NCBI GenBank assembly: GCA_964509335.1 | Contig: CAZDXB010000010.1 | Span: forward strand, 3,977-67,976 | DNA: 64,000 nucleotides | Source of the DNA: an uncultured Hyphomicrobiales bacterium | GTDB lineage: Bacteria > Bacteroidota > Ignavibacteria > Kapaibacteriales > UBA2268 | Direction: 5' to 3' | Part shown: one piece after another, positions 1 to 47,650 of the stretch | How positions within the stretch are numbered: the stretch's first letter is position 1 | Layout of the letters: the number at the start of each line of letters is the position of its first letter | Made by a program: the position numbers and the translations under genes | Notes under the pieces: generated by a model | Told to the model about the DNA's origin: nothing | What the model saw: the letters and a program-made list of their open reading frames with translations, nothing else | Database searches by the model: none

Positions 1-530
1 AAAGCGTCGGCTTGGGCAGAGCCTACGGAGCTGATTTGTCTTTCAGGAAAAATTTTTCGAACCATTATTATATAACGGCGACGGCATCTTATATGAGACA
101 GCAATACAAAGGTTCGGACGGCGTTTGGAGGTTCGGAGCTTTCGACAACGTTTTCGCCGTCAATCTGCTCGCCGGCTACGAGTGGGTAATCACCCCTACT
201 TTTACGATTGAATTTTCCGGTAGATATACAATAGTGGGCGGCGGACCTTACGTTCCGATAGATTTAGAAGAATCTCGCGCTCACGGCGAAACAAGAAGGG
301 AAGAAAGCGAAGCGTATTCCGTAAGGAGTCCAAATTATTCAAGAACCGATTTTAGGATAGATTTCCGAGAGAATTTCGACGGATTCGCAATCGTTAGCTA
401 TGTATCAGCCGAAAACGTATTTAACAAACAAAACGTTTACGATTATCAATACGATTCAAACGACGATAGGATTGAAGCTGTCAGTCAGCTGGGATTCTTT
501 TTCGTCGGCGGATTTAGAATAGAGTTTTAA
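1..530 (+). CDS. C-terminal fragment of an outer-membrane beta-barrel protein (TonB-dependent receptor-like); the 5-prime end lies outside the window
   Basis: Open frame from the window edge. It is Y/F/G/N-rich with alternating hydrophobic beta-strand residues and ends GGFRIEF (aromatic C-terminal residue typical of OM beta-barrels). Confidence 0.45.
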   Translation, partial: SVGLGRAYGADLSFRKNFSNHYYITATASYMRQQYKGSDGVWRFGAFDNVFAVNLLAGYEWVITPTFTIEFSGRYTIVGGGPYVPIDLEESRAHGETRREESEAYSVRSPNYSRTDFRIDFRENFDGFAIVSYVSAENVFNKQNVYDYQYDSNDDRIEAVSQLGFFFVGGFRIEF

Positions 531-539
531 CGTATCTCT

Positions 540-950
540 AACCCTCCCCAGCCCTCCCTTTAACAAAGGTAGGGATCGCATATATGTCTTAAGATGTGCC
601 ACACCTCGCAGGTGTGGCACATCTGCGAAGGAACGTAGAGACGCGAGATTTTGCGTCTCCACAGCCTCCATTTGTAGGGATTTGATTTATCAAATCTCCC
701 AGAACAAAGAATAGCCACGGCAATAACGGCATTCTACGATTTGATAAATCTACAGTTTTTGTTGTAGGAGCGCGGCAAGCCGCGTCCTAACCCAGACGCG
801 GAGCGTCTCCGTATCCGTTCGAAGGAGGAACGAAAAAAGACGCGGAGCGTCTTCGTATGCGTTTTGCCGCGGAGTGGGCGGAACGAGTTGTAATATTAAA
901 ACCCTCTCCGCTTGCGGAGAAGGTTAGGGTGAAGTAGAAGCCGCGGAGCG
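540..950. repeat. Repeat-dense non-coding region with several strong inverted repeats and hairpin-family copies
   Basis: Perfect IR gtgccacacct/aggtgtggcac. Hairpin gagacgcgagattttgcgtctc. gatttgat(t/a)aatcaaatc. A duplicated gacgcggagcgtct(c/t)cgtat. IR ccctctccgcttgcggagaagg. Confidence 0.6.
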
Positions 951-956
951 GACGTA

Positions 957-1442
957 TTACTCTCCCTTCTCCTTCAAATAATCCATCGCCAGACTGAAAA
1001 TTTCGAGCGGAACCGAATGCCCGAAATCCTCTTTTACTATTTGTGTGTTCTTGTAATCGTTTTCCTCTATAAACTTAATCGTTTTTTCCGGTATGATTTC
1101 GTCGTCGTCCTTCCCCAAAATCAAAGTCTTCTCGACGTCGGAAAAGACTTTCATCACGGGAACGGACACAGTTTTGAACGAAATCGCGGGGTTAAACAAT
1201 ACGGCGGGTATTTCGGAAAACTCCGAAAGATAGAATCCTATGTAACCGCCAAATGAACTGCCGACTATATTTGTAATTCTCTCTTTTCCGACAAATACGG
1301 TCAATTCCTCAAAGAGAGAGATATTGCTTTCGTATTCTCGATAATCAATTTTTGGAGCGACAACCTCGCTCCTAGATTCCAAAATCTCCACCTTGTCCTC
1401 TCGCGGATGACTATCCAATCCGTGCAAATACAGTATTTTCAT
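957..1442 (-). CDS. YqiA-like alpha/beta hydrolase (predicted esterase, UPF0227 family)
   Basis: N-terminus MKILYLHGLDS. GxSxG-type nucleophile motif GSSFGGY. Size about 160 aa, typical of YqiA-family esterases. Confidence 0.6.
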   Translation of the reverse strand: MKILYLHGLDSHPREDKVEILESRSEVVAPKIDYREYESNISLFEELTVFVGKERITNIVGSSFGGYIGFYLSEFSEIPAVLFNPAISFKTVSVPVMKVFSDVEKTLILGKDDDEIIPEKTIKFIEENDYKNTQIVKEDFGHSVPLEIFSLAMDYLKEKGE

Positions 1443-1571
1443 TTAATTTCCATTATTAATCTACGAAATATTTCAAGTTAACAAACAATAAAGACAAATC
1501 TAAACAAAATCCAAATTAAACGCCCTTTGATTGTTTCTCTCATTCCGCTCCTCCCTCGTTCCGCTCCTCTC

Positions 1572-1653
1572 CCTCGTTCCGAAATTACAATTTCGGAACG
1601 AGGACGGGGACGCTCTCCCAGACTCATTCCCAAATTACAATTTGGGAATGAGT
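1572..1653. repeat. Two adjacent perfect 32-bp palindromes of the dispersed family TTCC(C/G)AAATTnnnAATTT(G/C)GGAA
   Basis: cctcgttccgaaatt-aca-aatttcggaacgagg (1572..1603) and actcattcccaaatt-aca-aatttgggaatgagt (1622..1653). Arms are perfect and the flanks co-vary. Further copies at 39581..39661 and 47516..47650. Confidence 0.8.
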
Positions 1654-1810
1654 TGTAAAGAATTTGGGATGAGTTGGATAGTAATTCAATGAGAAAGACA
1701 TAAACAAATCAAAAACATCAAAAGAACGTATATTTTTAGGATAATTATCATAAATTCGCTAAATTTATCTTTTACTAAAATTAGTATTAAAATATAAGAA
1801 TAAGGGAAAT

Positions 1811-3178
1811 ATGATAGAAGAGTTTCCGAAAATCTTGTTGCCGGACAAACCCGACTTAAGAAAAATCGACGTATATATGGAAAACGGCGGCTACAACTCG
1901 TTAAGAAAAGCCGTTAGAATGAAAAAAGAAGAAATTATCGAAGAAATAAAAAAAGCCGGCTTGAGAGGCAGAGGCGGCGCGGCGTTTCCGACCGGTCTTA
2001 AATGGTCGTTTATGCCGAAGGACGATTCCATCGACAAGTACCTTTGCGTAAACTCCGACGAATCCGAACCCGGCTCCTTTAAAGACCGGCAGATTTTAGA
2101 GTTCAACCCTCATCAATTAATAGAAGGGATACTAATCTCCGGCTACGTTATGGGCATTAAAGCCGCCTATATTTACATTAGAGGCGAATACCACAAATGG
2201 CAGCGACTAATGCAGGAAGCATTAGACGAAGCCTACGCTAAAGGACTGGTCGGCGAAAAACTAAGAGCTAATTTAAAAAGCCAACTGGGTATCGATTTCA
2301 AAATCGATATTTATATACATAAAGGCGCCGGAGCTTATATTTGCGGCGAGGAAACCTCTCTAATGACTTCAATCGAAGGCGACAGAGGATACCCCAGATT
2401 CAGACCGCCCTTCCCCGCGCAAAAAGGCCTTTGGGGCAAGCCGACCACTGTAAACAACGTCGAGACTATAACTACCGTCCCCAAAATAATAGAAATGGGC
2501 GGCGAAGAATATTCTAAAATCGGCGCCGAAGGACATTCCGGCACTCTGCTTTTCGGCGTCAGCGGACACGTCAACAAACCCGGCGTTTACGAACTGCCCA
2601 CGGGAACTTTATTAACGGATATTATTTACGACGTCTGCGGAGGCGTTCCGGGCGATAAAAAAATCAAAGCCGTTATACCCGGCGGCTCCTCTATGCCGCC
2701 GCTACGAGGCGACGAAATAGAAGGCGTCCGAATGGACGAAAACTCATTGAGCAAACTCGGCACCCACATAGGAACGGGCGGAATAATGGTAATGGACGAA
2801 GACACCGACATCGTGAAAGTAACGCTCCGAATAGCGCATTTCTACCATCACGAGTCCTGCGGTCAATGCACCCCTTGCAGAGTCGGATGCGGCTGGATGG
2901 AAAAAATCTTGAAAAGAATAGCCGACGGCGAAGCTACCTCTGGCGACTTAGACCTGTTGCTCTCGGTAGCCGACCAAATAGAAGGAAATACGATTTGCGC
3001 TTTGGGAGAAGCCGCCGCTTGGCCCATAAAAGGCGACTTCTCGCCGGTAGCGGGCGGATTTATAAATAAATTTAGAGACGAATTTGAAAAAGCGGTCAAA
3101 GAGAAGCGAACTTTTCGCTCCCCGAACGTCGTTCACGGAAGAAAAAAAACCGCCGACTATTTGATTGAAACCGCTTGA
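1811..3178 (+). CDS. nuoF: NADH-quinone oxidoreductase subunit F-like flavoprotein (51-kDa subunit family; NAD(H)-binding, FMN and 4Fe-4S)
   Basis: GRGGAAFPTG(L)KW FMN/NADH motif. Conserved ESCGQCTPCR 4Fe-4S motif. Length 455 aa. Confidence 0.85.
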   Translation: MIEEFPKILLPDKPDLRKIDVYMENGGYNSLRKAVRMKKEEIIEEIKKAGLRGRGGAAFPTGLKWSFMPKDDSIDKYLCVNSDESEPGSFKDRQILEFNPHQLIEGILISGYVMGIKAAYIYIRGEYHKWQRLMQEALDEAYAKGLVGEKLRANLKSQLGIDFKIDIYIHKGAGAYICGEETSLMTSIEGDRGYPRFRPPFPAQKGLWGKPTTVNNVETITTVPKIIEMGGEEYSKIGAEGHSGTLLFGVSGHVNKPGVYELPTGTLLTDIIYDVCGGVPGDKKIKAVIPGGSSMPPLRGDEIEGVRMDENSLSKLGTHIGTGGIMVMDEDTDIVKVTLRIAHFYHHESCGQCTPCRVGCGWMEKILKRIADGEATSGDLDLLLSVADQIEGNTICALGEAAAWPIKGDFSPVAGGFINKFRDEFEKAVKEKRTFRSPNVVHGRKKTADYLIETA

Positions 3179-3276
3179 TATAGCGACTGACTGCTTTGCC
3201 GACATATTATTTGTTTAACGCGTTCTTTAATATTACGAGGAAACGAGACGTTTTAAATTTGTAAGTTTAATACATT

Positions 3277-4605
3277 ATGGTTACTATGAAAAAAATAATC
3301 GCTACCTTCATATTGTCGCTGTTTGTTTTCTCTTGCGCTGAAAAAAAGGAAGTCCAAGAATATAACTTAGACGCCTTAGCCGAAACATACGTCAAACTCG
3401 CTCTCAATCTCGGAGACTACGACGAAGACTATATCGACGCCTATTTTGGTCCGCCAAACATAAAAACCGAAGCGGAAAAAAACAAATTGCCGCTTGAGGA
3501 GATAATAACGCGCTCGGACTCGCTCTTATCTAAACTGAAAAAAATAAACCGACAAAATATCGACTCGTTAGAAAATCTTCGCGTTAATTACATAATCAGC
3601 CAATTAACCGCCCTAAACGCCAGAGCCGAGATTCTAAACGGAGAAACCTTCGACTTCGACAAGGAATCAAAGCTACTTTACGGCGTTGAAGCGCCTATGC
3701 ATTCCTTCGAATATTACGACAAAGCCTTGAAAAATCTCGATTCAATCTTAAAAGGCGAAGGAACGCTAAAAGAAAGAATCCAAAATATTAGAGACGAATT
3801 TCTCATAGACGACGAAAAAATCGAAGCGGTATTCGACGCCGCCGTCGAAGAAGCTCGCAAAAGAACGCTAAAACAAGTCGAAATGCCCAAAAGCGAAAAT
3901 TTCAAAGTAGAATACGTCAAAGACAAACCTTGGGGCGGTTACAACTGGTTCAAAGGCGACGCTACCAGCCTAATTCAAGTCAATCTTGATTTGCCAAAAA
4001 CCGTTGACGGTTTCCTCCATCTCGCCTGCCACGAAGGCTACCCCGGACACCACGTTTATCACGCCCTTATCGAAAAGCTATTCTACAAAGACAAAGGCTG
4101 GCTCGAATTTTCGGTATATCCGCTATTCACGCCGCAAGCGACGCTTTCCGAAGGACTGGCTAACTACGGAATTAAAGTAGCTTTCCCCGGCGACGAAAAA
4201 ATCGAATTCGAGAAAACAGTCTTGTGCGAAATCGCCGGACTCGACTGCGATAATTTAGAGCGCTACATCAACGCTTCTAAACTAATGAAAAAGCTAAACT
4301 ACTCGACTATCGACGTCTCGAGAAAATATTTGAACGGAGACATCGACCGAGAAGAAGCGGTTAAAACGATTATGAAATACAGATTTAGAACGAAAGAAAG
4401 AGCCGAGAAAAATCTCGATTTCGTCGATAGATACAGAACATACATCATAACCTATTACGTCGGCGAAGACCTATGCGAAAAGTGGGTAGAATCAAAGTTA
4501 AAATCCGAAAAACAACGCGAAAAACGCTGGAATCATTACAAAAAACTTTTAACTTCCCCGATAACGCCGGAATTTCTAATGAAAGACATAGGAGAAGAGC
4601 TATGA
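3277..4605 (+). CDS. DUF885-family lipoprotein (putative metallopeptidase-like)
   Basis: Lipoprotein signal MKKIIATFILSLFVFSC. HEGYPGHH motif characteristic of DUF885. Confidence 0.55.
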   Translation: MVTMKKIIATFILSLFVFSCAEKKEVQEYNLDALAETYVKLALNLGDYDEDYIDAYFGPPNIKTEAEKNKLPLEEIITRSDSLLSKLKKINRQNIDSLENLRVNYIISQLTALNARAEILNGETFDFDKESKLLYGVEAPMHSFEYYDKALKNLDSILKGEGTLKERIQNIRDEFLIDDEKIEAVFDAAVEEARKRTLKQVEMPKSENFKVEYVKDKPWGGYNWFKGDATSLIQVNLDLPKTVDGFLHLACHEGYPGHHVYHALIEKLFYKDKGWLEFSVYPLFTPQATLSEGLANYGIKVAFPGDEKIEFEKTVLCEIAGLDCDNLERYINASKLMKKLNYSTIDVSRKYLNGDIDREEAVKTIMKYRFRTKERAEKNLDFVDRYRTYIITYYVGEDLCEKWVESKLKSEKQREKRWNHYKKLLTSPITPEFLMKDIGEEL

Positions 4606-17206: not shown

Positions 17207-17585
17207 AGAATACCGCCACAGAACTCGTAAAGACGCAATATCTTGCGTCTCTTAAACGGAACGTAGAGCGGACGCCCTCGTCTGCTCTAAAATAGTAATT
17301 CTTAATTAGTCTGCTCTAAACTAGTGATTCTTAATTAGTAATTATTTTACGAAGACGGGGGCGTCTTCGCTACTATAGCGATAACCGACAGCTTCAGCTG
17401 TCGGCTGGCAATAAAAGGCGTCCTGAACATAGGCAGATAGCTAAAGAGACTGTCTAAAAAGCTATCTGTTACCCTTTGATTATCATTCTTCTTTTAAAAT
17501 TCCAATTTCGGAAGGCGCCAAAAAAAAAGAGACGCAATATCTTGCGTCTCTACTTCTGAACTAAATCTTTTTCGTTCTGAGAATT
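17207..17585. repeat. Repeat-dense intergenic region
   Basis: Two copies of hairpin gagacgcaatatcttgcgtctc (17222.., 17529..). Tandem repeat of about 30 bp tctgctctaaa(a/c)tagt(a/g)attcttaattagt x2. Hairpins gaagacgggggcgtcttc, cgacagcttcagctgtcg and cagatagc...gctatctg. A half-copy of the TTCCAATTTCGGAA element. Confidence 0.6.
17520..17551 (-). terminator. Rho-independent terminator of pnp
   Basis: Perfect 10-bp stem agagacgcaa/ttgcgtctct, followed on the minus strand by a run of nine T. Confidence 0.7.
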
Positions 17586-22363: not shown

Positions 22364-25315
22364 CTACGTTAAGGTTCTCTTTATCTCTTTCAACCTGAAG
22401 GCTTCAATTACGTCGCCTTCTTGGATTTCTGTGAATCCGTCGAGCAAAATTCCGCATTCATAACCGGAATCGACTTCCTTTACGTCTTCTTTTTCTCTTT
22501 TAAGAGACTGAATTTTACCTTTAAAAATCGGCAAGCCGTCTCTCAGGACTTTCACTCTGTCGTTTCTGTGAACTTTGCCGTCGGTAACGTAACAACCGGC
22601 GACGTTGCCCAATTTGCTGATTTTAAATACTTTGCGAACTTCTATTGACGCCATCCTGTCTTCATGTATTTCCGGCGAGAGCAAGCCCTCAATAGCCAAA
22701 CGAATATCGTTGATGGCGTCGTAAATAATGCTGTATTGCCTAATATCTATAGCTTCCTGATTAGCTAATTTTCTCGCTTGAGGCGAAACCGAAACTTGAA
22801 AACCGATAATTACGGCTTTAGAAGCCATAGCCAACATTACGTCCGACTCGGATATAGCGCCCACGCCTTTATGCAGCACTACTACTTTTACCTCGTCGGT
22901 CGATTGCTTTTGTAAAGCGTCGCTCAAAGCTTCGATTGAACCGGCTACGTCGCCTTTGATTACAAGATAAAGTTCTTTTACCCCGCCCATTTGTATCTGT
23001 TGCGAAATATCGTCCAAAGTCATATGTCGAGTTTGACGTATTTCCTGTTCGCGTTTCAACTGTTTCCTTTCGTTGGCAATTGTTCGCGCTTTTGAATCAG
23101 TATCCATAGTAATTAATATATCGCCCGCTTCGGGCAATCCGTCAAAGCCAATTACTCTAACGGGAATTGTCGGTTCGGCGGATTTAATTTTATTACCGCG
23201 CTCGTCAAACATCGCCCTCACTCTTCCGGCGTTGACTCCCGCGACAAACGGTTGTCCGAGCTTTAACGTGCCTTGTTGGATAATTATCGTTGAAACCGGT
23301 CCCAAACCTCTATCCATATTGGCTTCGATTACCGCTCCGCGAGCCATCTTGTTGGGATTAGCTTTCAAATCCAACATTTCGGCTTCCAAAAGAATTCTAT
23401 CCAATAAATTATCCACGTTCTTGCCGGTTTTAGCCGATATTTCAACGCTCTGGACTTTTCCGCCCCAATCCTCGACCAGAATGTTCTGCTCGGAAAGCTG
23501 CTGCCTAATCCTTTCGGGATTAGCTTCCGGTTTATCAGTTTTATTTATGGCTACTATAATAGGCACGTTGGCGGCTCTAGCGTGGCTTATAGCTTCCAAA
23601 GTCTGCGGCATAACGCTATCGTCGGCGGCTGCCACCAAAACGACAATATCTGTAATTTGCGCGCCGCGAGCCCTCATAGCCGTAAACGCTTCGTGTCCCG
23701 GAGTGTCTAGAAACGTTATGAACTTATCTTCGGGCAATTCAACCCTGTAAGCGCCTATATGCTGTGTTATCCCGCCCGCTTCGCCGGCTACCACTCTAGT
23801 TTTCCTAACATAATCCAATAACGACGTCTTACCGTGGTCAACGTGTCCCATTACAGTTACTATAGGCGAGCGAAACTCTAAGTTCTCCTCGTCGTCTTCT
23901 TCATCGTCAACGATAGCTAACTGCGCCGTCTTCTCGTCCATAAATTCTACGTCGTAACCGTAATCGTCGGCTATCAAAGTAATTGTATCTTTATCTAATC
24001 GCTGATTTAACGTTACCATCAACCCCAACTCCATACATTTGACGATAATGTCGTTTGGATTAATGTCCATTAAATCCGCTAAATCAGCCGTAGTAACGAA
24101 TTCGGTAATTCTTAATGTCTTGGATTCTTGTTGCTCCTCTTCTTTCTTCTTCAGCTCTTTTTCCTCGCGTTCGGCTTTCTTCTTTTGTCTTAATTTTTGA
24201 CGCTGATTTAAAGCTTTAGAACCGCTCATATTCGAAAGCGTCTTCTTCAAAGCCTTATCGACGTCTTCTTCTTTAACCAATTCCCTAACGGATAACTTTT
24301 TCTTTCTTCTTTCCTTCTTCTTCTTCCTTGAGCGCATTTTTTTACGCTCTTTGACGGATAAATCTTTTCCGGGTTCTTTTGTCTCTTTCTTCTTCTTGTC
24401 TTTTTCGGGTTCTTTCGGCGGTTTCTTTCGCGCCTCTTTTTCCCTTTTCTTCTCGGCTTCCTTTATCTCTTTTTCTCTTCTCTTTTCTTTATCTAAATCT
24501 ATCTTGCCGACAATCTTCAATCCTTTCTTAGGACTGATTTCTGATTCCTCGATATCTACTTCGGCTATTGTCTTCCTTTGTTTTTTCTTCGGTTTCCGCT
24601 TGGCGGCGACCTTTTCCTTCTCAGCTTCCTCTTTCTCTGCTTTCTTCTCTTTTTCCTTTGCCGCTTGTTCTTTTGCCTTTTCGGCTTCTTCTTTCTTAAC
24701 CTTCTCTATTTCTTTCGCTTCTTTTTCTTTATCGGCTTCTTCTTTCTTTGCCTCGGCTTTTTCAGCGGTTTCAAGTTCTTTAGCTTTTTCTTCTTCTTTA
24801 GCTTTTTTAGTCTTTTTCTTCTTAGCTTCTTCTTTAGCCGCCTCTTCTGTCTTCTTTTTCCTTGGTTTGGCTTTGCGTTCTTTCTTTTCTGGTTCCTCTT
24901 TCTTTTCAGCCGCTTTCTTTTTCTTTGTCTTTGGTTTCTTTTCGGCTTTTTCTTCTTCTTCTTTTGCTTCCGGTTCCTTTTGTTCTTTTTTGGTTTCTTT
25001 TGCTTTTTGTTCCTCTTCTCCGGCTTTTTCGGCTTCCGCCTCTTCCTTTTCGGGTTCCCCTTTTTCTTCGATTTCTTTTTGGAGAGCTTCCTTGCGTATT
25101 TTTCTGTGCTTTTCTAATTTATCGCGCTGTATTTCCGCCGCTTTTCTTTCCCTTTTAAATTTATCGTCTATCGCTTCTAACATTTCAGGCGATAAAGTAG
25201 CGGTGGCTTTGTTTGTTATATCAAAACCTTTGCTTTGTAGGAACTCTACTATTGCGTTCCTACCGATATTTATCTCGGCCGCTACCTTGAAAAGCCGTTT
25301 CTTTTTTTTTGCCAT
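22364..25315 (-). CDS. infB: Translation initiation factor IF-2 with a 370-aa or so K/E/A-rich low-complexity N-terminal region
   Basis: G domain GHVDHGKTSLLD, DTPGHEAF, NKTD. IF2 N-terminal domain MAKKKKRLFKVAAEINIG..IVEFL. 983 aa. Confidence 0.95.
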   Translation of the reverse strand: MAKKKKRLFKVAAEINIGRNAIVEFLQSKGFDITNKATATLSPEMLEAIDDKFKRERKAAEIQRDKLEKHRKIRKEALQKEIEEKGEPEKEEAEAEKAGEEEQKAKETKKEQKEPEAKEEEEKAEKKPKTKKKKAAEKKEEPEKKERKAKPRKKKTEEAAKEEAKKKKTKKAKEEEKAKELETAEKAEAKKEEADKEKEAKEIEKVKKEEAEKAKEQAAKEKEKKAEKEEAEKEKVAAKRKPKKKQRKTIAEVDIEESEISPKKGLKIVGKIDLDKEKRREKEIKEAEKKREKEARKKPPKEPEKDKKKKETKEPGKDLSVKERKKMRSRKKKKERRKKKLSVRELVKEEDVDKALKKTLSNMSGSKALNQRQKLRQKKKAEREEKELKKKEEEQQESKTLRITEFVTTADLADLMDINPNDIIVKCMELGLMVTLNQRLDKDTITLIADDYGYDVEFMDEKTAQLAIVDDEEDDEENLEFRSPIVTVMGHVDHGKTSLLDYVRKTRVVAGEAGGITQHIGAYRVELPEDKFITFLDTPGHEAFTAMRARGAQITDIVVLVAAADDSVMPQTLEAISHARAANVPIIVAINKTDKPEANPERIRQQLSEQNILVEDWGGKVQSVEISAKTGKNVDNLLDRILLEAEMLDLKANPNKMARGAVIEANMDRGLGPVSTIIIQQGTLKLGQPFVAGVNAGRVRAMFDERGNKIKSAEPTIPVRVIGFDGLPEAGDILITMDTDSKARTIANERKQLKREQEIRQTRHMTLDDISQQIQMGGVKELYLVIKGDVAGSIEALSDALQKQSTDEVKVVVLHKGVGAISESDVMLAMASKAVIIGFQVSVSPQARKLANQEAIDIRQYSIIYDAINDIRLAIEGLLSPEIHEDRMASIEVRKVFKISKLGNVAGCYVTDGKVHRNDRVKVLRDGLPIFKGKIQSLKREKEDVKEVDSGYECGILLDGFTEIQEGDVIEAFRLKEIKRTLT

Positions 25316-25371
25316 ATGTGTTTTGGAACTATTTTAATTTATTTCTCGTTTAATTATTACGACGTAGTTTC

Positions 25372-26778
25372 CTAGTCTTTATCTTCTTTTTTTTCTTGAT
25401 TAGCTTCTTCTTCTAAATCTTCTGCTTCCTCGTTTTCCTCGTCTTTTTCTTGTTCGTTGAACTCAAAATTTCGAATTTCCTCTACGATATCTTCCGACTC
25501 TTTTTCCTCAAACTCGCTCAAGATTATGCCTCGAAGCTCGACTAAGAAATCTTTAGTCATACCTTCGACATTTAACAATCGTCCAATGTCGGCTTCGAGT
25601 AATTCTCGGGCGGTTTCGATATCGGAGTCCAACAATCTCTCGTATAAATCCGTTCCTAATTCGTCCTTGAACTCCGACAATTCGATATCCTCGCCGCCTT
25701 CTTTAACCAGCGTTATCGAATAACCGACTAATTTCGAAGCGAGTCTAACGTTTTGTCCGTTCTTGCCGATTGCCAAAGAAACTTGGTCGTCGGGAACAAT
25801 TACCGTAGCGCTTCTGATTTCCGGCTCCGCAATTATTTCTTTTACGCGCGCCGGCAAAAGAGCCCTGCTAATAAAAGTTTTTACGTCCTCGGAATATTCT
25901 ACTAAATCTATATTCTCGTTATTCAATTCGCGAACGATAGAATGTATTCTAATCCCTTTCATACCGACGCAAGCGCCCACTGGGTCAACTCTGTCGTCGT
26001 AAGAGAGAACAGCGACTTTCGAGCGTTCTCCCGGGTCCCTAGCTATCGATTTCAACTGAATAATTCCGTCGTAAATCTCAGGTATTTCTATCTCGAACAG
26101 ACGAGCCAAGAAATCGTTGGAAGCCCGAGACAAAACAATCTCCGGCTGCCCAGACGAACCCGAACGCCTAACTTCCTTAATTATCGCTTTAATCGATTGG
26201 TTCTTCTTAAACTTATAAGGCTCGTTCGGAATCTGTTCTTCTCGCGGCAAAAGCATCTCGACTTTGTTGTGCATTATCAGAATATAGTTTCTTCTAATTT
26301 GATAAATCTCGCCGATTATGATTTCGCCGACTTTGTCGTTGTATTCGTTATATATATTATCTTTTTCTACTTCGCGAATTTTTTGATTCAAATTTTGAGA
26401 AGCCATCGCGACCAGCCTTCTGCCAAAATTATCGGCTATATTGTCAAGAGTTATCTCTTCTATAAACTCGTCGCCAACTTCGAATTCTTCGTTAGGATTT
26501 ATATCTTCGGCGTCTTCAAGAGAAATTTCCGTTTCAGGGTCCTCTACTTCCTCGACTATCTCTCGCATCAAATAGATTTCTATATCGCCTTTGTCCAAAT
26601 TGACTATTATCTCAAAATCAGCTTCCAGTCCGTACTTTTTCTTAACTAGCAAAGATAAAGTCTCTTCCACTATACCCTGTAACAAGTCGCGATCGATATT
26701 CTTCTGCTTCGCCATCTCGGCGAAGGCGTCGATTATCATCTTTTTATCTACTACTCTCTTTTTCTTCTTTCTAGCCAT
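25372..26778 (-). CDS. nusA: Transcription termination/antitermination factor NusA with an acidic C-terminal tail (true start may be the internal Met at 26739)
   Basis: N-terminal domain, S1 and tandem KH domains (GxxG: AIGKNGQNVRLASKL). Directly upstream of infB. Confidence 0.9.
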   Translation of the reverse strand: MARKKKKRVVDKKMIIDAFAEMAKQKNIDRDLLQGIVEETLSLLVKKKYGLEADFEIIVNLDKGDIEIYLMREIVEEVEDPETEISLEDAEDINPNEEFEVGDEFIEEITLDNIADNFGRRLVAMASQNLNQKIREVEKDNIYNEYNDKVGEIIIGEIYQIRRNYILIMHNKVEMLLPREEQIPNEPYKFKKNQSIKAIIKEVRRSGSSGQPEIVLSRASNDFLARLFEIEIPEIYDGIIQLKSIARDPGERSKVAVLSYDDRVDPVGACVGMKGIRIHSIVRELNNENIDLVEYSEDVKTFISRALLPARVKEIIAEPEIRSATVIVPDDQVSLAIGKNGQNVRLASKLVGYSITLVKEGGEDIELSEFKDELGTDLYERLLDSDIETARELLEADIGRLLNVEGMTKDFLVELRGIILSEFEEKESEDIVEEIRNFEFNEQEKDEENEEAEDLEEEANQEKKEDKD

Positions 26779-28659: not shown

Positions 28660-29178
28660 CTACTTCTTTAACCTAAACTCCCAAATACAAGCGTAATCTT
28701 CGTCCGTAATTTCCGGCGGGCAGGAAATACACTCCGTCTCGAACCTCTCGTCAATCGTTTTGGCGAAATAGCCGTATTCTACTATTCCGACCGACTTACA
28801 AGGAAAGTCGGGCAAATTCTTCCTCCTTCTCGCGCTCTGCACCCTGCAAGTCTTTACGTAATATCTGACTGTATTATCATCGATAATTTCCACTCTGTCT
28901 TCGTTCAAAGTAGAGTAAAGCCTGTAAAGCAGAGCTTCGCCCAAGCCAGGAACGCCCGAGTTTTCGCCCAAATCCAAAAACTTCTTCAATCTGTTCGCTT
29001 CGACGACGGTGAATTTCCGCCACGCCTCTCTGTCCATATCAATTGCCGCGTCCATCCCGTATTTTTCTTCAATCGACAAGAACCAACAACCGTCGTGAGC
29101 GAGCCAATTCTTCGCGTAGATATTCGCCAACTCAAAAAGCTTTTCCTTAGGTAAATTATTGATTTTTTCTGAACCCAT
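28660..29178 (-). CDS. Hypothetical Cys-rich protein (172 aa) directly downstream of the DNA methyltransferase
   Basis: ORF with cysteines CW, CRVQ, CKSV, CISCP, YAC. No confident family assignment. Confidence 0.4.
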   Translation of the reverse strand: MGSEKINNLPKEKLFELANIYAKNWLAHDGCWFLSIEEKYGMDAAIDMDREAWRKFTVVEANRLKKFLDLGENSGVPGLGEALLYRLYSTLNEDRVEIIDDNTVRYYVKTCRVQSARRRKNLPDFPCKSVGIVEYGYFAKTIDERFETECISCPPEITDEDYACIWEFRLKK

Positions 29179-29210
29179 AAATAACTCGGAAATTAATTAA
29201 ACTAAATGAT

Positions 29211-30164
29211 TTATGCCTCTTTGCTAATCTTAGAGCCGAAATTCATTTCCTTCGGGTCAACCAATCGCTCCAAAGCGCCGTCCGCCCTATAAAAATACGG
29301 CAGCGACTTAATCCGTTCGTCAAAATCAGCCTCGACGCTTTCTTCTCTTTCAAAAGCTATTTCCTCGCCAAAAATTGAACCGTCGCGAACGCCGAGATTT
29401 TCTTTGACTAATTCCAAATAATCGTCGTTTATTTCGTAACCTATAGAGCTTCTCCCAAGATTTTTAGCCGCCAATGAAGTAACGCCGCTACCCAAAAAAG
29501 GGTCTAATACCGTCTCGCCGACGAATGAATACATTTTGATAAATCGTCGCGGCAACTCCTCGGGAAACGCGGCTAAATGCTTGCCCTGCTTAGCTCCGGC
29601 AAAATTCCAATGCCCCGAAAAATAATTCTTCCATTCCTCTTTAGTCATTTCCGACGCTTCCTTTTGCTCTTTCGTCGGTTTTGGAGCCTTGCCCGGCTTC
29701 TTAAAAATCAAATTAAACTCGTAGTCAATCTCCACTATCCCGTTTCTCGGATACGGATACGAACCCATAATTACCGCGCCGCCCGTCGTGTTCATTGTGG
29801 TTCTCTTTTGCCAAATGATAGCTCCCATATAATCGAAGCCGATTGTCTCGGCGAACTTAATAATCTCCGTCCTAATGGGAATAATCTTATACCTACCGTA
29901 ATAAACCGAGCGAGCGAATTGGTCGCCTACGTTGACAATCATTTTACATCCGGGATGCAAAACCTCGAAGCAACGCGCCCAAACTAGATTCAGATGATTT
30001 ATATACTCTTCGTATGTTTGGTCGTAGCCTATTTGTTCTTCTTTTCCGTAATCCTTCAGTTGCCAGTAAGGCGGTGAAGTTACTATTAAATGAACGCTCC
30101 CGTCTTCGAACGATTTCATCAATCGAGAGTCGCCGATTATTATTTTATGAGACGTATTATGCAT
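29211..30164 (-). CDS. DNA methyltransferase, beta-class amino-MTase (PF01555 type). The SPPY motif suggests N4-cytosine, or N6-adenine.
   Basis: Motif IV SPPY at residues about 30-33. Motif I DPFLGSGVT near the C-terminus (the circular permutation typical of the beta class). Confidence 0.8.
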   Translation of the reverse strand: MHNTSHKIIIGDSRLMKSFEDGSVHLIVTSPPYWQLKDYGKEEQIGYDQTYEEYINHLNLVWARCFEVLHPGCKMIVNVGDQFARSVYYGRYKIIPIRTEIIKFAETIGFDYMGAIIWQKRTTMNTTGGAVIMGSYPYPRNGIVEIDYEFNLIFKKPGKAPKPTKEQKEASEMTKEEWKNYFSGHWNFAGAKQGKHLAAFPEELPRRFIKMYSFVGETVLDPFLGSGVTSLAAKNLGRSSIGYEINDDYLELVKENLGVRDGSIFGEEIAFEREESVEADFDERIKSLPYFYRADGALERLVDPKEMNFGSKISKEA

Positions 30165-39580: not shown

Positions 39581-39661
39581 CTCCTTCCCAAATTCCAATT
39601 TGGGAAGGAGCTGTAACTATTTGTAAATAAACTAATTCCCAAATTGAAATTTGGGAATTAG
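39581..39661. repeat. Two perfect palindromes of the dispersed TTCCCAAATT..AATTTGGGAA family
   Basis: ctccttcccaaatt-cc-aatttgggaaggag (39581..39610) and ctaattcccaaatt-ga-aatttgggaattag (39632..39661). Confidence 0.8.
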
Positions 39662-39759: not shown

Positions 39760-40542
39760 GTGAATAAATGGACAAAACTAAGTATTGAATACGCTAACCA
39801 AAGGTCGTATCTTGACGACTTATTTCAAGTTTATCCCACAATTCCCGAAGGCGTTAGAGAAATCGACCAAGAAATTTGGACCGAAGTAGAGAAAGCCTTC
39901 AATCGCAAGGACAATAAATCGCTAATTAAAAAATTGTTGACGCTAGACTTATTCCCCATTAAAGACAGCTATGTCGCTTATTTGAAAAGAGACAAAACGG
40001 CAATTGAAAGAAATCCTAGAACGATTAACCGTATTAGCGGTAGGCTTTACGAAATGGGACTGGATAAAATATTTGAAAGATGCAGCGAACCGAAAGAAAC
40101 AAATCGTCAAATTGGACCGATGTTCAGAAATTGGATTAGTAAAAAATCGTTGGGAATTGAACCGGTCAATTTGAAAATTTTTTCCGCTAACGAAAAAGAC
40201 GGCGTTTTGGAAGCTGGCGATAAAGCAATGATGGATTTCGCTAAGGAACGTCTGGGATACAAGTTAAATAAAGGCTTAGACTTTATCGGCAGATTCAACG
40301 GCAAATATGTAATCGGCGAAGCAAAGTTCCTAACCGATTTCGGCGGGCATCAAAACGCCCAATTCAACGATGCAATTAATACGCTCAAAGCGAAAGGCGT
40401 TAAAGCTGAAAAAATCGCTATACTAGACGGAGTCCTATATATCAAAGGTCAAAACAAAATGTATAAAGCGATAACCGAGAAGTACAAGAACGTCAACATT
40501 ATGAGCGCCCTTGTTTTAAGAGAATTTTTATATCAATTATAA
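39760..40542 (+). CDS. Putative type II restriction endonuclease (PD-(D/E)xK-like)
   Basis: Immediately upstream (4-bp gap) of a DNA MTase. Candidate catalytic signature D(FIGRFNGKYV)IGEAKF. No other family match. 260 aa. Confidence 0.5.
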   Translation: MNKWTKLSIEYANQRSYLDDLFQVYPTIPEGVREIDQEIWTEVEKAFNRKDNKSLIKKLLTLDLFPIKDSYVAYLKRDKTAIERNPRTINRISGRLYEMGLDKIFERCSEPKETNRQIGPMFRNWISKKSLGIEPVNLKIFSANEKDGVLEAGDKAMMDFAKERLGYKLNKGLDFIGRFNGKYVIGEAKFLTDFGGHQNAQFNDAINTLKAKGVKAEKIAILDGVLYIKGQNKMYKAITEKYKNVNIMSALVLREFLYQL

Positions 40543-40546
40543 CGCT

Positions 40547-41608
40547 ATGGAAAATTTACTTATAAAAAGCGATAATATTAAAGGATTAAATTACCTTCTT
40601 GATGAAAGGCGTTTAGAAGGCAAAATTGACTTAGTCTATATTGACCCCCCTTTTGCAATTAGCCGAAATTTTACCATAACAGACAGTAGAGCTTCGACAA
40701 TAAGTAACGCGAGAAACGGTAACATCGCCTACGCCGACAAATTATTGGGAAACGAATTTATAGAATTTCTGCGACAAAGATTAATTCTACTTAAAAAACT
40801 ATTATCGGTAAAAGGCTCAATTTACCTACATACTAATTATAAAATCGGCCATTACGTAAAAGTAATGATGGACGAAGTTTTCGGTCCTAAAAATTTTAGG
40901 AACGACATAACAAGAATAAAATGTAATCCAAAAAATTTCAATCGAGTCGGTTACGGGAATATGAAAGACTTAATTCTGTTTTATTCAAAATCCTCGAGCC
41001 CAATTTGGAACGAACCTAAAGAAAAATATTCACAAAGAGACCTTGAAAAGCTCTTTCCTAAAAAAGACAAACACGGAAGAAGATATACAACCGTGCCAAT
41101 CCATGCTCCGGGAGAAACCGAAAACGGAAAATCAAATCAGCCGTTCAAAGGGATAATGCCGCCCGAGGGAAGACATTGGAGAACCGACGTGGAAACCTTA
41201 GAGCGTTGGGATAAGAAAGGTCTTATCGAGTGGTCGTCATCAGGCAATCCAAGAAAGAAAATCTACGCCGACGAGAGAGAAGGAAAAAGAGTGCAAGATA
41301 TATGGGAATACAAAGACCCTCAATACCCATCATATCCAACTGAAAAAAACGAAAAGATGCTCGATTTAATTATTAGAACATCGTCAAATAAAAACAGTAT
41401 AGTTATAGATTGTTTTTCCGGCTCCGGCGTTACGCTTAAATTAGCACAGATTAACGGTAGAAAATGGATAGGTATAGATGATTCAGAACACGCTATTAAA
41501 GCGTCGATAGAAAAAATTGAGAAAATCGAAGACAATCTATTTGACGAGAAACCTAATTTCAATTACATTGACTTAGAAAAAAAGCGAAGAAGAGAGAAAC
41601 GCGTATAA
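40547..41608 (+). CDS. DNA methyltransferase, beta-class amino-MTase (N6-adenine or N4-cytosine)
   Basis: Motif IV DPPF near the N-terminus (LVYIDPPFA). Motif I DCFSGSGVT near the C-terminus. 353 aa. Confidence 0.8.
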   Translation: MENLLIKSDNIKGLNYLLDERRLEGKIDLVYIDPPFAISRNFTITDSRASTISNARNGNIAYADKLLGNEFIEFLRQRLILLKKLLSVKGSIYLHTNYKIGHYVKVMMDEVFGPKNFRNDITRIKCNPKNFNRVGYGNMKDLILFYSKSSSPIWNEPKEKYSQRDLEKLFPKKDKHGRRYTTVPIHAPGETENGKSNQPFKGIMPPEGRHWRTDVETLERWDKKGLIEWSSSGNPRKKIYADEREGKRVQDIWEYKDPQYPSYPTEKNEKMLDLIIRTSSNKNSIVIDCFSGSGVTLKLAQINGRKWIGIDDSEHAIKASIEKIEKIEDNLFDEKPNFNYIDLEKKRRREKRV

Positions 41609-41707
41609 ATCAAAACCGCTAGAATTTTAAAAAACAACCGCACCTTTGGAAATATCTCAAACTTTCTATAACTTAAGTAAAAAGTTTAAACTAAAAGAGG
41701 CGAAATT

Positions 41708-42898
41708 ATGACTTTCAAAATAAGCGACTCGGTATATTGGACGGGAAAGATAGATTGGCAGTTGCGCAAATTCCACGGCGACGAGCTTTCCACCCACCGC
41801 GGAACTTCCTTTAACTCTTACTTGATTAAAGACGAGAAGAACGTATTAATCGACACAGTTTGGAAACCGTTCACGGCGGAATTTCTCGACAATCTGAGAA
41901 GTCTTATCAAACTGGAAGACATCGACTATATAGTAGTCAACCACGGCGAACCCGACCACAGCGGAGCGCTACCGCATCTAATGGCTTATCTGCCGGACGG
42001 CGTCCCTATATACTGCTCGAAAAGCGGCGTCGCCTCGCTAAAAGGACACTACCATAAGGACTGGAATTTCAAGCCCGTCAAAACCGGCGACAAGCTAAAC
42101 ATAGGTTCTCGCGAATTAACTTTTATCGAAGCGCCGATGTTGCATTGGCCCGACACTATGACGACATACCTTTCGGGCGAAAATATACTGTTTTCTAACG
42201 ACATCTTCGGTCAGCATTACGCCTCCGAGTTTATGTTCGACGACAAAGTCAATCAATACGAGCTATACTACGAAGCGATGAAATACTACGCCAACATAAT
42301 CGCGCCGTTCGCGAAAAAAGCTCTCAAAAAAGTAGAGGAACTCGAATCGCTCGACCTGCCGATTAATCTAATAGCGCCCGCCCACGGCGTTATCTGGCGA
42401 AAAGGCATCAAAAACATAATCGAAACTTACAAGAAATGGTCGGACGCTTACAAAGAAAATCAAATAACAATAATCTACGACACGATGTATAATAGCACGA
42501 GGTTAATGGCTGAATCAATCGCCGACGGAATCAAACAAGCCGACGACGAAGCGGAAATAAAAATATACAACAGCTCGAAAACCGACAAGAACGACTTGAT
42601 TACGGAAATATTCAAATCGAAAGGGATATGCGTCGGCTCGCCTACTCTGAACGGCGGCGTCCTATCGTCGGTCGCGTCCATAATAGAGGAAGCGGCGGGC
42701 TTGAACTTGAGAGACAAAAAAGCCGCCGTTTTCGGCTCTTACGGCTGGTCGCCCGCCAATATTAAAGTCCTGACCAAAGCCTTGGAATCGGCTAAATTCG
42801 AAGTCGTCGGCGACGGCGTAAAAGCCCAATGGAAACCCGAACAAAAGAACTTGGAAGAATGCGTCGAATTCGGCGAGGAATTCGCCCAATCTCTATAA
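41708..42898 (+). CDS. fprA: FprA-family flavodiiron protein (metallo-beta-lactamase-like di-iron domain + flavodoxin domain)
   Basis: Di-iron ligand motif HGEPDHSG. C-terminal flavodoxin-like domain (ITIIYDTMYNSTRLMAE). 396 aa. Confidence 0.85.
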   Translation: MTFKISDSVYWTGKIDWQLRKFHGDELSTHRGTSFNSYLIKDEKNVLIDTVWKPFTAEFLDNLRSLIKLEDIDYIVVNHGEPDHSGALPHLMAYLPDGVPIYCSKSGVASLKGHYHKDWNFKPVKTGDKLNIGSRELTFIEAPMLHWPDTMTTYLSGENILFSNDIFGQHYASEFMFDDKVNQYELYYEAMKYYANIIAPFAKKALKKVEELESLDLPINLIAPAHGVIWRKGIKNIIETYKKWSDAYKENQITIIYDTMYNSTRLMAESIADGIKQADDEAEIKIYNSSKTDKNDLITEIFKSKGICVGSPTLNGGVLSSVASIIEEAAGLNLRDKKAAVFGSYGWSPANIKVLTKALESAKFEVVGDGVKAQWKPEQKNLEECVEFGEEFAQSL

Positions 42899-46459: not shown

Positions 46460-46607
46460 ATTCTCTCAATTTTCTCTTTCGTCCAAAATAAGTTTGTAAA
46501 GATAAAGGATTAGAGCTAGAAAGAAAAGTTAGTTTGTTAAACTACCGTCAGTTATAGAAATTTCTGATTAGCTATTTATAAATTCGCTCATTCCTTATAT
46601 TTGTATT

Positions 46608-47387
46608 TTGGCAACGACAAATTACGAGCAAATGAAAACAAAAAAGAAATACGAAATAGGAATAGCTTTAGGCGGCGGCGGGCAAAGAGGATTCGCCCAC
46701 TTCGGCATACTGAAAGCGCTGAACGAAAAAGGCATATATCCCGATATGATATCCGGCGTCAGCGCCGGAGCCATAGCCGGCGCGTTCATAGCCGACGGCA
46801 AAGAACCGGAAGAAGCTTTCAACTTGTTAAAAAAGAACAAATTCGCCGATTTCACCAGAATAATATTCCCTATCGACGGCTTCTTCAGCCTCGACAAATT
46901 AAACGACAACCTGAAAAACTTGATTGAAGCCGACGACGTAAAGGACTTGAAACTGCCTTTCTACGCCGCGGCGACTAATTTAACCGACGGAACGGTGGAA
47001 TATTTTGACGAAGGTCCCCTTCATACTATAATCCAAGCGTCGTCTTCGATACCGGTTGTTTTCTCCCCCGTTGAAATCGACGGTAAATTATACGTTGACG
47101 GCGGCATATTCGACAACGTGCCCGTTACCCCGCTCTTGGGAAAATGTAAAAAGATAATCGCCGTCAACGTAAACCCAATGAAGAAAGCCAAAAGCATCAA
47201 AAACTTTTTGCAAGTAGCCGATAGAGTAACGCACCTTGTCGTTAACCAAACCATCAAAGACATAAAAGACAAATGCGATATATTCATCGAACCTAAAAGA
47301 ACGATAGAATATGAAATACTATCTTCCGACCATCCCGACAAACTTTTCGAAATCGGCTACGAATATTGTAAGAGTTTGGATATATAG
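46608..47387 (+). CDS. Patatin-like phospholipase
   Basis: GGG.RG oxyanion motif (LGGGGQRG). Nucleophile GVSAG (GxSxG). Catalytic DGG. Confidence 0.8.
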   Translation: MATTNYEQMKTKKKYEIGIALGGGGQRGFAHFGILKALNEKGIYPDMISGVSAGAIAGAFIADGKEPEEAFNLLKKNKFADFTRIIFPIDGFFSLDKLNDNLKNLIEADDVKDLKLPFYAAATNLTDGTVEYFDEGPLHTIIQASSSIPVVFSPVEIDGKLYVDGGIFDNVPVTPLLGKCKKIIAVNVNPMKKAKSIKNFLQVADRVTHLVVNQTIKDIKDKCDIFIEPKRTIEYEILSSDHPDKLFEIGYEYCKSLDI

Positions 47388-47515
47388 ACGAAGCGATAAA
47401 GACTACCGGACGTCATTCCCAGCTCGACTGGGAATCCAGAGAAAACGATTGTCTTGAAATCATACTTTTATCTCATTACCTAAATCCCGAGGCTAAACTA
47501 AAATCCAGAAACTAA

Positions 47516-47650
47516 TCTAATTCCCAATTTGGAATTTGGAAATTAGGATAAAAAAAATGAAATTTGGATAAACTTTAGAGCGCCGCCTATTTCCCAAATT
47601 GAAATTTGGGAAATAGGATAAATTAGGATAAAATTGAAATTTGGGAAATA
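47516..47650. repeat. Cluster of three copies (one imperfect, one perfect, one half) of the dispersed palindrome family in a 370-bp non-coding region
   Basis: ctaattcccaatttggaatttggaaattag (imperfect). ctatttcccaaattgaaatttgggaaatag (perfect, 47587..47616). aaattgaaatttgggaaatag (half). Additional hairpin attcccagctcgactgggaat at about 47425. Confidence 0.75.

Follow-up and report, generated by a model that had tools for sequence, protein, structure and literature searches.

Studies of REP-type repeats have dealt almost wholly with Proteobacteria, and these repeats are considered to be genus-specific. Those of the REP/BIME and REPIN-RAYT kinds are extragenic palindromes of 20-40 nt that occur as doublets or as hairpin mosaics and turn over lineage by lineage (PMC3116915, PMC3337134, PMC3479197). 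The closest published analogue in architecture to the repeats considered here is an 18-nt palindromic repeat of Caldithrix abyssi, nAACCGTTnnAACGGTTn, which is intergenic (lying between convergent genes among other places) and has a reported strand bias in its central dinucleotide. Its authors judged it to be REP-like, not a site for a transcription factor, and gave its function as unknown (PMC5317091).

The 64-kb stretch of DNA analysed here (the window) holds a family of palindromes that is real and previously undescribed; its core strings bring up nothing in the searchable literature but primers and shRNAs. Like the PU/REP sequences of E. coli and the REPINs of Pseudomonas, these are short extragenic palindromes, non-coding, non-autonomous, dispersed and clustered, and the inverted doublets typical of REPINs are seen in related two-hairpin units (B-A units, below) from MAGs labelled as at least seven other phyla. 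Then there are the differences. REPs are imperfect palindromes, whereas those of the window are perfect and strand-symmetric, 14 nt on either side of a centre of 2, which is atypical of REPs and counts against placing the family among them. RAYT-associated REPs carry GTAG or GTGG at the 5' foot, while the foot here is CT-NN / NN-AG. A REPIN-RAYT system includes a RAYT gene, and there is none in the 64 kb or in the ~85 ORFs neighbouring related copies. Finally, REPs are usually confined to a species or genus, but the core of the window's family recurs across phyla. With the GTAG motif absent and no RAYT gene among the ORFs examined, membership in the RAYT-REP class is unproven, and since each copy is symmetric, the orientation of the pairs in the window is undefined. 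The Caldithrix repeat also comes from a host in the FCB group and shares the plan of two arms about a free 2-nt centre. It differs in its unrelated sequence and in its arms of 8 nt as opposed to 14-15 nt, and covariation in the stem, pairing in clusters and arrays of arms are not reported for it (PMC5317091).

Palindromes of the window

The window is ordinary chromosome. Its genes include nusA-infB-rbfA-truB-ribF-rpsO-pnp, those of acyl-CoA metabolism, nuoF, GH57 and a TonB receptor, and among the ORFs of its 64 kb no transposase (Y1_Tnp or other) is found. The pattern TTCCSAAATTN{2,3}AATTTSGGAA has five exact matches (at 1577, 1627, 39585, 39636 and 47591) where 100 dinucleotide shuffles of the 64-kb window give an expectation of 0.00, each of the five being a perfect inverted repeat about a 2-nt centre. 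Seven perfect palindromes in the window have arms of at least 11 nt (0.33 expected from simulated sequence), five of them in the family. If the arms are allowed to be as short as 9 nt, there are 12, and the centre is 2 nt in 7 of these as against 0.3 expected. The local density of full family copies is 6 per 64 kb. The copies and the pieces beside them are as follows.

1539..1581, tandem array of left arm plus flank, CTCGTTCCGCTCCTCTCC, 18 nt x 2.5, continuing into the copy at 1572-1603
1572..1603, strand-symmetric, perfect palindrome with 15-nt arms, CG-type flank and the TTCCG core variant, cCTCG TTCCGAAATT AC AATTTCGGAA CGAGg; arms continue imperfectly to 22 nt; DNA fold -16.8 kcal/mol, z = -6.1
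1622..1653, strand-symmetric, perfect palindrome with 15-nt arms and CA-type flank, aCTCA TTCCCAAATT AC AATTTGGGAA TGAGt; DNA fold -13.9 kcal/mol, z = -7.5
1639..1686, tandem array of right arm plus flank, AATTTGGGAATGAGTTGGAAAG, 22 nt x 2.2
1661-1673, half copy AATTTGGGATGAG inside the array 1639-1686, with the TGAG flank of the adjoining copy
17497..17515, decayed copy between convergent genes, right arm AATTTCGGAA intact, left arm eroded
39581..39610, strand-symmetric, perfect palindrome with 14-nt arms and CC-type flank, the stop codon of an OB-fold gene lying 27 nt before it; fold -13.3 kcal/mol, z = -6.8
39632..39661, strand-symmetric, perfect palindrome with 14-nt arms and AA-type flank, a gene for a Tsp45I-like endonuclease lying 99 nt downstream; fold -11.7 kcal/mol, z = -7.6
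47516..47545, decayed full copy, CTAA TTCCCAATTT GG AATTTGGAAA TTAG, one substitution per arm leaving 12/14 complementarity; nhmmer E = 2.9e-5; fold z = -0.41, the level of shuffled sequence
47586..47617, strand-symmetric, perfect palindrome with 15-nt arms and AT-type flank; fold -13.3 kcal/mol, z = -6.6
47631..47650, partial copy AAATTGAAATTTGGGAAATAG comprising the inner part of the left arm, the centre and the whole right arm, and bearing its neighbour's ATAG flank

The original prediction, made from the letters of the window, had claimed at least seven copies, and it placed them correctly, with five of them exact. Its claim that every full copy is a perfect inverted repeat of 14-15 bp holds for those five but not for the copy at 47516-47545, decayed in both arms and in its fold. 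The centre, thought to be two or three nucleotides, is 2 nt in every copy and 3 nt in none, and what had passed for a degenerate half near 17500 is a full copy in decay (17497-17515), as its intact orthologue in a sister species attests. Arm arrays with periods of 18-23 nt adjoin full copies in the window and in that sister species. The half copies have the flanks of the full copies next to them (TGAG at 1661, ATAG at 47631) and are therefore local duplications, not independent insertions; the partial copy at 47631-47650 is most likely a duplicate of the neighbouring full copy.

All copies are intergenic, and they come in clusters of two or three in which paired copies are 50-70 bp apart. Cluster 1 lies between divergent genes, UPF0227 on the minus strand and nuoF on the plus strand. 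Cluster 2 lies between genes in tandem, with the OB-fold gene ending 27 nt before it and a Tsp45I-like restriction-modification pair beginning 99 nt after it. Cluster 3, likewise in tandem context, is ~130 nt past a stop codon, between the patatin and CNNM/CBS genes, and the decayed copy at 17497-17515 lies between the convergent genes SDR and pnp. The clusters are separated by 38 kb and 8 kb, and the genes around them are unrelated. It had been claimed that the copies concentrate at the edges of accessory genes. They do adjoin such genes, on one side only: the restriction-modification pair on its right (41608-41708) and the patatin gene on its left (46460-46608) are both without a family copy. 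The concentration is thus weak, and with both far edges empty, the idea that copies bracket accessory genes is not supported. In the sister species, copies adjoin genes for MscS, a response regulator, GcvP and a FemAB-like protein, at loci other than those of the window.

The restriction-modification pair at 39760-41608 consists of a Tsp45I-family restriction endonuclease and an N6/N4 methyltransferase. It is missing from the syntenic position after the thiolase/OB-fold operon in a relative (metagenomic contig L072), and so is probably a recent insertion. At the nuoF locus of another relative (L069) there is an EcoRV-like restriction-modification pair instead. Elsewhere in the window, an apparently orphan N6/N4 DNA methyltransferase (29211-30164) adjoins a DUF6125 gene, the two forming a segment (28660-30164) flanked by genes for a carboxyltransferase and a fused MeaB/methylmalonyl-CoA mutase.

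Covariation and the copies of relatives

Judged by NuoF and other proteins, the window belongs in the Ignavibacteriota/Kapabacteria radiation, where named hits are 71-75% identical. A sister species is present in the metagenome Ga0102934, its SDR gene 89% identical to that of the window in nucleotides and 94% in protein. It supplies 7 intact and 2 decayed copies of the family on five short contigs (L028, L041, L045, L049 and L064), as well as a tandem array of the right arm, 23 nt x 4.5, on L041.

The family consensus is CT-NN-TTCC-S-AAATT-NN-AATTT-S-GGAA-NN-AG, a 30-bp unit in which the outer CT...AG is invariant and the stem varies only at positions -2/-1 and at the S of the core. The flanks of the five perfect window copies are CTCG/CGAG, CTCA/TGAG, CTCC/GGAG, CTAA/TTAG and CTAT/ATAG. 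Flank positions 1-4 are complementary in all five, past position 5 complementarity is at the level of chance, and the pairing of the stem ends sharply at the CT/AG boundary. When the five are aligned with the seven intact copies of the sister species, three pairs vary over the 12 copies: pair 5/30 (C:G in 9, A:T in 3), pair 6/29 (A:T in 8, G:C in 2, C:G and T:A in one each) and pair 11/24 (C:G in 10, G:C in 2). Among 36 variable cells there is not one mismatch or one-sided change. No shuffle of 500 reaches the observed covariation score, and shifting the partner column by a single position destroys the pairing. The flanks were left free by the search pattern, so this part of the test is unbiased.

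It follows from changes so strictly paired that the potential to form a hairpin or cruciform is what is preserved, as the original prediction had it when it said that the outer positions change on both arms together and that the compensation keeps this potential. I consider it probable that hairpin formation is the property maintained. Folded as single-stranded DNA, the five perfect copies reach -11.7 to -16.8 kcal/mol (z = -5.5 to -7.6). No G-U or G-T intermediate occurs at the covarying pairs of the 12 aligned intact copies, and three of the pair switches exchange transversion pairs, which together favour coupled change over slow compensation in two steps. Any correction of one arm by the other would not be absolute, as decayed copies make clear. 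The earlier view went too far in adding that no fixed protein-binding sequence is involved: among the 12 intact copies the 10-nt half-site of the core never varies except at the covarying S, although the copies were selected by that same core. This constancy suggests that sequence-specific recognition may act in addition to structure.

The comparison of orthologous copies with the sister species concerns the SDR locus alone. There the sister species (L064, L074 and L075) has an intact perfect palindrome, CTCA TTCCGAAATT AT AATTTCGGAA TGAG, while in the window the left arm has eroded and the flank has changed. From a copy that is intact in one species and eroded in the other, it may be concluded that copies outlast a nucleotide divergence of ~11% and are nonetheless individually dispensable. 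Orthologues of clusters 1 and 2 were not obtained from the sister species, NuoF and the OB-fold protein having no homologue above 79% identity. In the relatives whose NuoF is 79% identical, 2 x 21 kb contain no copy of the family; upstream of nuoF these relatives and the window have a conserved promoter-proximal block in common (TTTTAGGATAAT...), but the palindromes are missing from the relatives.

A different picture comes from contig L072, whose OB-fold protein is 73% identical to that of the window. The same operon that adjoins cluster 2 has, at a different site (between KAS-III-like and thiolase genes), a 111-nt unit in tandem that comprises three hairpins: TCCTTTCCAAA-CTCCGA-TTTGGAAAGGA, CGAAAC-TCTG-GTTTCG and CATTCCCAAGT-GAA-ACTTAGGAATG. 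Relative to the window's family their sequence has diverged and their complementarity has been retained. The spacer in which they lie (8364-8800 of L072) is crowded with hairpins: besides the two A1-B-A2 units that make up the 111-nt tandem, it contains an AT-rich (TAATTAATAA)n palindrome and two hairpins of the form CCCTTAT(A/T)AATAAGGG.

The same core in other phyla

Matches to TTCCC...GGGAA in public genomes and metagenomes are ~8 times commoner than those to a mixed-arm control, and the first flank pair is complementary in 21 of 25 such loci as against 2 of 7 controls. About half of the loci have a second small hairpin, B (GAAAY-NGA-RTTTC), 10-12 nt upstream of the palindrome A (CGTTCCCAAATT-GG-AATTTGGGAACGAG), and where B is present, A is followed by YGAG, the whole unit coming to ~53 nt. 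Across MAGs with the labels Deferribacteres, KSB1, Ignavibacteria, Thiotrichaceae, Caldilineaceae, Hydrogenedentota and Cloacimonadota, the units share 80-89% identity. The labels under which the two-hairpin element is found in all are Ignavibacteria, Hydrogenedentota, Deferribacteres, KSB1, Cloacimonadota, Chloroflexota (Caldilineaceae) and Gammaproteobacteria (Thiotrichaceae, Methylococcales), and the G+C content of the loci in other phyla that bear the core runs from 0.32 to 0.56. Hairpin B covaries too (GAAAC/GTTTC in some, GAAAT/ATTTC in others). A covariance model of the B-A unit finds full-length copies (>45 bits) in 13 loci; the copies of the window score through their A part alone, the B hairpin being absent.

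The units are often arranged as inverted doublets, A'-B'...B-A, as in L007, L014 and L020, and contigs of Hydrogenedentota contain units of ~140-155 nt bounded by inverted copies of the palindrome (L020 2512-2667, L007 604-744) with no direct repeats flanking them. Their neighbours are unrelated housekeeping genes, to which they are oriented in mixed fashion (sense, antisense, convergent), and no shared neighbour family, RAYT, TnpB, regulator or transposase appears in the ~85 ORFs beside related copies. In 185,579 representative genomes, a set that does not include the source genome, the family pattern occurs as single matches only, in unrelated organisms. Of the two, the cross-phylum unit is a more novel lead than the family of the window.

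Two loci deserve mention for their surroundings. In a Chloroflexota MAG (L011), a perfect copy with a CG-type flank at 154-183 lies ~290 nt upstream of a gene for a 1086-aa RAMP (CRISPR-associated) domain protein (470-3727), which is probably a coincidence. On a metagenome contig of 29% G+C (L058), a repeat of ~290 bp (1-480 and 880-1000) containing a palindrome with CC-type flank and a GTCGAAATGGCATTTCGAC hairpin flanks a DUF5618 gene on both sides.

What the repeat may be

I propose that the palindromes of the window make up a REP/BIME-type (REPIN-like) family specific to its lineage, whose members are short intergenic repeats that form hairpins and are non-autonomous, a reading to which I give somewhat better than even chances. 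That they are dispersed selfish or neutral repeats and not regulators, whatever their kind, is held with considerably more assurance. The copies are dispersed over all intergenic contexts, they cluster, their arms are duplicated, they decay, they are present in one lineage and absent from another, and their changes are paired. The dispersed, clustered, intergenic copies bear out the REP/BIME-like behaviour originally predicted.

A palindrome of 30 bp with an AT-rich centre and clamps of G+C could extrude as a cruciform, or fold into a hairpin when the DNA is single-stranded. It would spread in trans by means of an enzyme that reads the shape of the hairpin together with the invariant core TTCC-S-AAATT, and the two variable pairs of the stem would be the positions that the enzyme does not read. 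The most plausible enzyme would be a single-strand transposase (HUH/Y1), either RAYT-type or IS200/IS605-type, whose gene would lie elsewhere in the genome; that the mobiliser is RAYT-like in particular is possible but rather doubtful. The ends of IS200/IS605 elements and the non-autonomous PATEs resemble the family in that they need no terminal inverted repeats or target duplications; they are recognised by a hairpin and adjacent linear sequence and have been widely transferred between phyla. Their hairpins, however, are imperfect and strand-specific while the palindromes of the window are perfect and symmetric, and no tnpA or tnpB lies beside any copy examined. The symmetry of the arms may be kept up by selection on folding, by correction of mismatches within the hairpin (template switching at quasipalindromes) or by both. 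Any function for the host, such as protecting the 3' ends of mRNA or binding a nucleoid protein, would be secondary, since single copies are dispensable.

Some observations sit poorly with REP-type repeats. The 64 kb of the source genome hold no mobilising enzyme. At least some copies appear to be old and not recently mobile, to judge by retention at one orthologous site. Moreover, the invariant core (in copies chosen for it), the fixed 2-bp centre and the half-site arrays of ~22 bp would fit a dimeric DNA-binding protein as well. If the reading is right, the family is a clean example of the REP type from an uncultured lineage of the FCB group, with perfect covariation and with birth, duplication and decay in plain view.

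A bolder proposal takes the palindrome to be the expanded A module of an undescribed two-hairpin element found across phyla, marking either a so far unrecognised hairpin-mobilising system that spreads horizontally (a new RAYT-like clade, for example, would be a candidate mobiliser) or a conserved host factor that binds hairpins, its symmetry kept by correction within the hairpin and not by selection alone. I regard this as speculative and would sooner bet against it. Were an enzyme indeed shared across phyla, the known range of REPIN-like systems would be widened, and there would be a compact hairpin substrate, with positions defined as read or unread, for studying recognition by single-strand transposases.

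It is unlikely that the palindromes act instead as stem-loops in neighbouring mRNAs, blocking 3' exonucleases, terminating or pausing transcription or serving as processing sites. The hairpins are very stable, their covariation is of the type seen in RNA helices, and two of the three clusters follow a stop codon at 27 nt and ~130 nt, much as a Rho-independent terminator would. E. coli REPs, too, have been reported to stabilise upstream mRNA, in work cited in PMC5317091. Cluster 1, however, lies between divergently transcribed genes, and there is no U-tract on the coding strand: cluster 1 gives no hit in a scan for terminators, and the hits at the other two clusters are on the wrong strand or weak, at the level of shuffled sequence. 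The want of G-U intermediates and the three transversion switches also count against RNA, as do the strand symmetry of the palindrome and the mixed orientation of the composite unit to its flanking genes in other phyla. Rfam 15 yields no hit at gathering score in the window, and at permissive thresholds only spurious ones of the miRNA type. Finally, one copy has terminators of another type beside it. These belong to a second family of hairpins, AGACGC-N8-GCGTCT, at 639-658, 17231-17250 and 17530-17549 (3 copies, 0.05 expected); those at 17231 and 17530 are identical, lie just past the convergent stop codons of SDR and pnp, and adjoin runs of A/T or T. They are probably the canonical terminators of the source genome.

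Slightly less credit goes to the view that the palindromes are sites for a dimeric, sequence-specific DNA-binding protein (a global regulator, a nucleoid-associated or a partition-like protein) for which the 10-bp half-site AATTTSGGAA would be the unit of recognition, either inverted with 2 bp between the two or directly repeated at ~22 bp. The core is invariant in intact copies and the 2-bp centre is fixed in length and free in sequence, half-sites form tandem arrays whose periods of 22-23 bp are about two helical turns, and sites are paired 50-70 bp apart. But it is too much to expect of such a protein that three positions should change symmetrically in both arms, or that the diverged hairpins A1 and A2 of L072 should change in sequence and keep their complementarity. 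Operators of transcription factors would be expected upstream of a conserved regulon or a cognate regulator and would keep their sequence as opposed to their complementarity; these copies sit beside unrelated genes and between convergent ones, with no conserved neighbouring gene or regulator found, and their changes are strictly compensatory. Individual sites decay, and isolated half-sites (one mismatch allowed) are not clearly enriched, at 43 against 30.5 expected, the excess falling mostly within copies.

The palindromes would make strange MITEs, and I find it improbable that they are minimal ones, composed of two abutted terminal inverted repeats of a DDE insertion sequence with a 2-bp spacer, like the junction of an IS circle, and mobilised by an IS elsewhere whose own termini would match CTNNTTCCSAAATT. 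The architecture of arm-NN-arm is compatible with this, the units of ~140-155 nt in Hydrogenedentota (L020, L007) are bounded by inverted palindromes, and the spread across phyla suggests that an autonomous element has transferred them horizontally. Bacterial MITEs (Correia/NEMIS, RUP, BOX, ERIC) are likewise non-autonomous and intergenic with inverted ends and the potential to form hairpins, and some are cotranscribed with neighbouring genes. At 100-400 bp they are longer, however, and they have distinct repeats at their termini as well as target-site duplications, while the units of the window are 30 bp and palindromic throughout. The MITE-like behaviour once suspected lacks its hallmark here: no direct repeats lie beside any of the five perfect copies. 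An IS with such ends turns up in none of ~55 loci, plasmid BLAST and viral contigs give no match to the family pattern, and terminal repeats that were independent would not covary. The absence of any transposase from the window also speaks against the copies being parts of a longer transposable element with ORFs.

That the palindromes arose by chance, or by a solely local duplication without the behaviour of a family, can be dismissed with near certainty, for although three clusters are visible in as little as 64 kb, chance predicts no matches at all, the clusters stand 38 kb and 8 kb apart beside unrelated genes, and seven more intact copies lie at unrelated loci on five contigs of the sister species.

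Several narrower identifications were tried and rejected. Read as a promoter for an ECF sigma factor (TGAAAC...CGT), the composite unit has an inconstant spacer of 18 to 20 nt, and a Bacteroidetes -7 box (TAnnTTTG) within the arm has the wrong spacing. The centres found in the window (AC, CC, GA) are not conserved, unlike the GGA loops bound by CsrA-type proteins; GTTCCC does not fit the GTTRRRY of integron attC sites; and uptake sequences of the DUS/USS type are out of keeping with isolated half-sites that lack clear enrichment.

One kind of evidence for repetitiveness was also discarded. Logan contigs, which are built from k-mers, stop at 30-bp perfect palindromes, and three of them (L025, L026 and L071) terminate within the copy at 1622-1653. 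But L071 ends likewise inside an unrelated perfect palindrome at 592-624, AGATGTGCCACACCT-CGC-AGGTGTGGCACATCT, with arms of 15 nt and lying between convergent ORFs, and a perfect palindrome of ~k-1 nt will itself break a de Bruijn graph. The contig ends in 592-624 and 1622-1653 suggest that perfect palindromes of ~30 nt break k-mer assemblies, and those of 30 bp probably fragment the assemblies of such genomes.

The window contains still other hairpins. The spacer between SDR and pnp is a BIME-like mosaic, consisting of a perfect arm-NN-arm palindrome at 17385-17404, CCGACAGCT-TC-AGCTGTCGG, conserved with the sister species, a hairpin at 17420-17460 (GGATAGCT...AGCTATCC), the decayed family copy and two terminators. 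Just past the patatin stop codon is the hairpin CATTCCCAG-CTCGA-CTGGGAATC (47405-47436), with arms similar to the core of the family (ATTCCCA/TGGGAAT); it may have diverged from the family or be a terminator. Two regions stand out by composition. The segment 53767-56116, whose G+C content of 0.33 is low beside the ~0.43 of the window, has genes for an ASCH-domain protein and for one resembling dCTP deaminase (DCD_N, DCD, DCD_C) and may be a horizontally acquired module for defence or nucleotide depletion. The region 24001-26000, minus strand, has an extreme AT skew (-0.49) across the 5' part of infB and the 3' part of nusA, which suggests a strongly biased, low-complexity N-terminal region in IF2.
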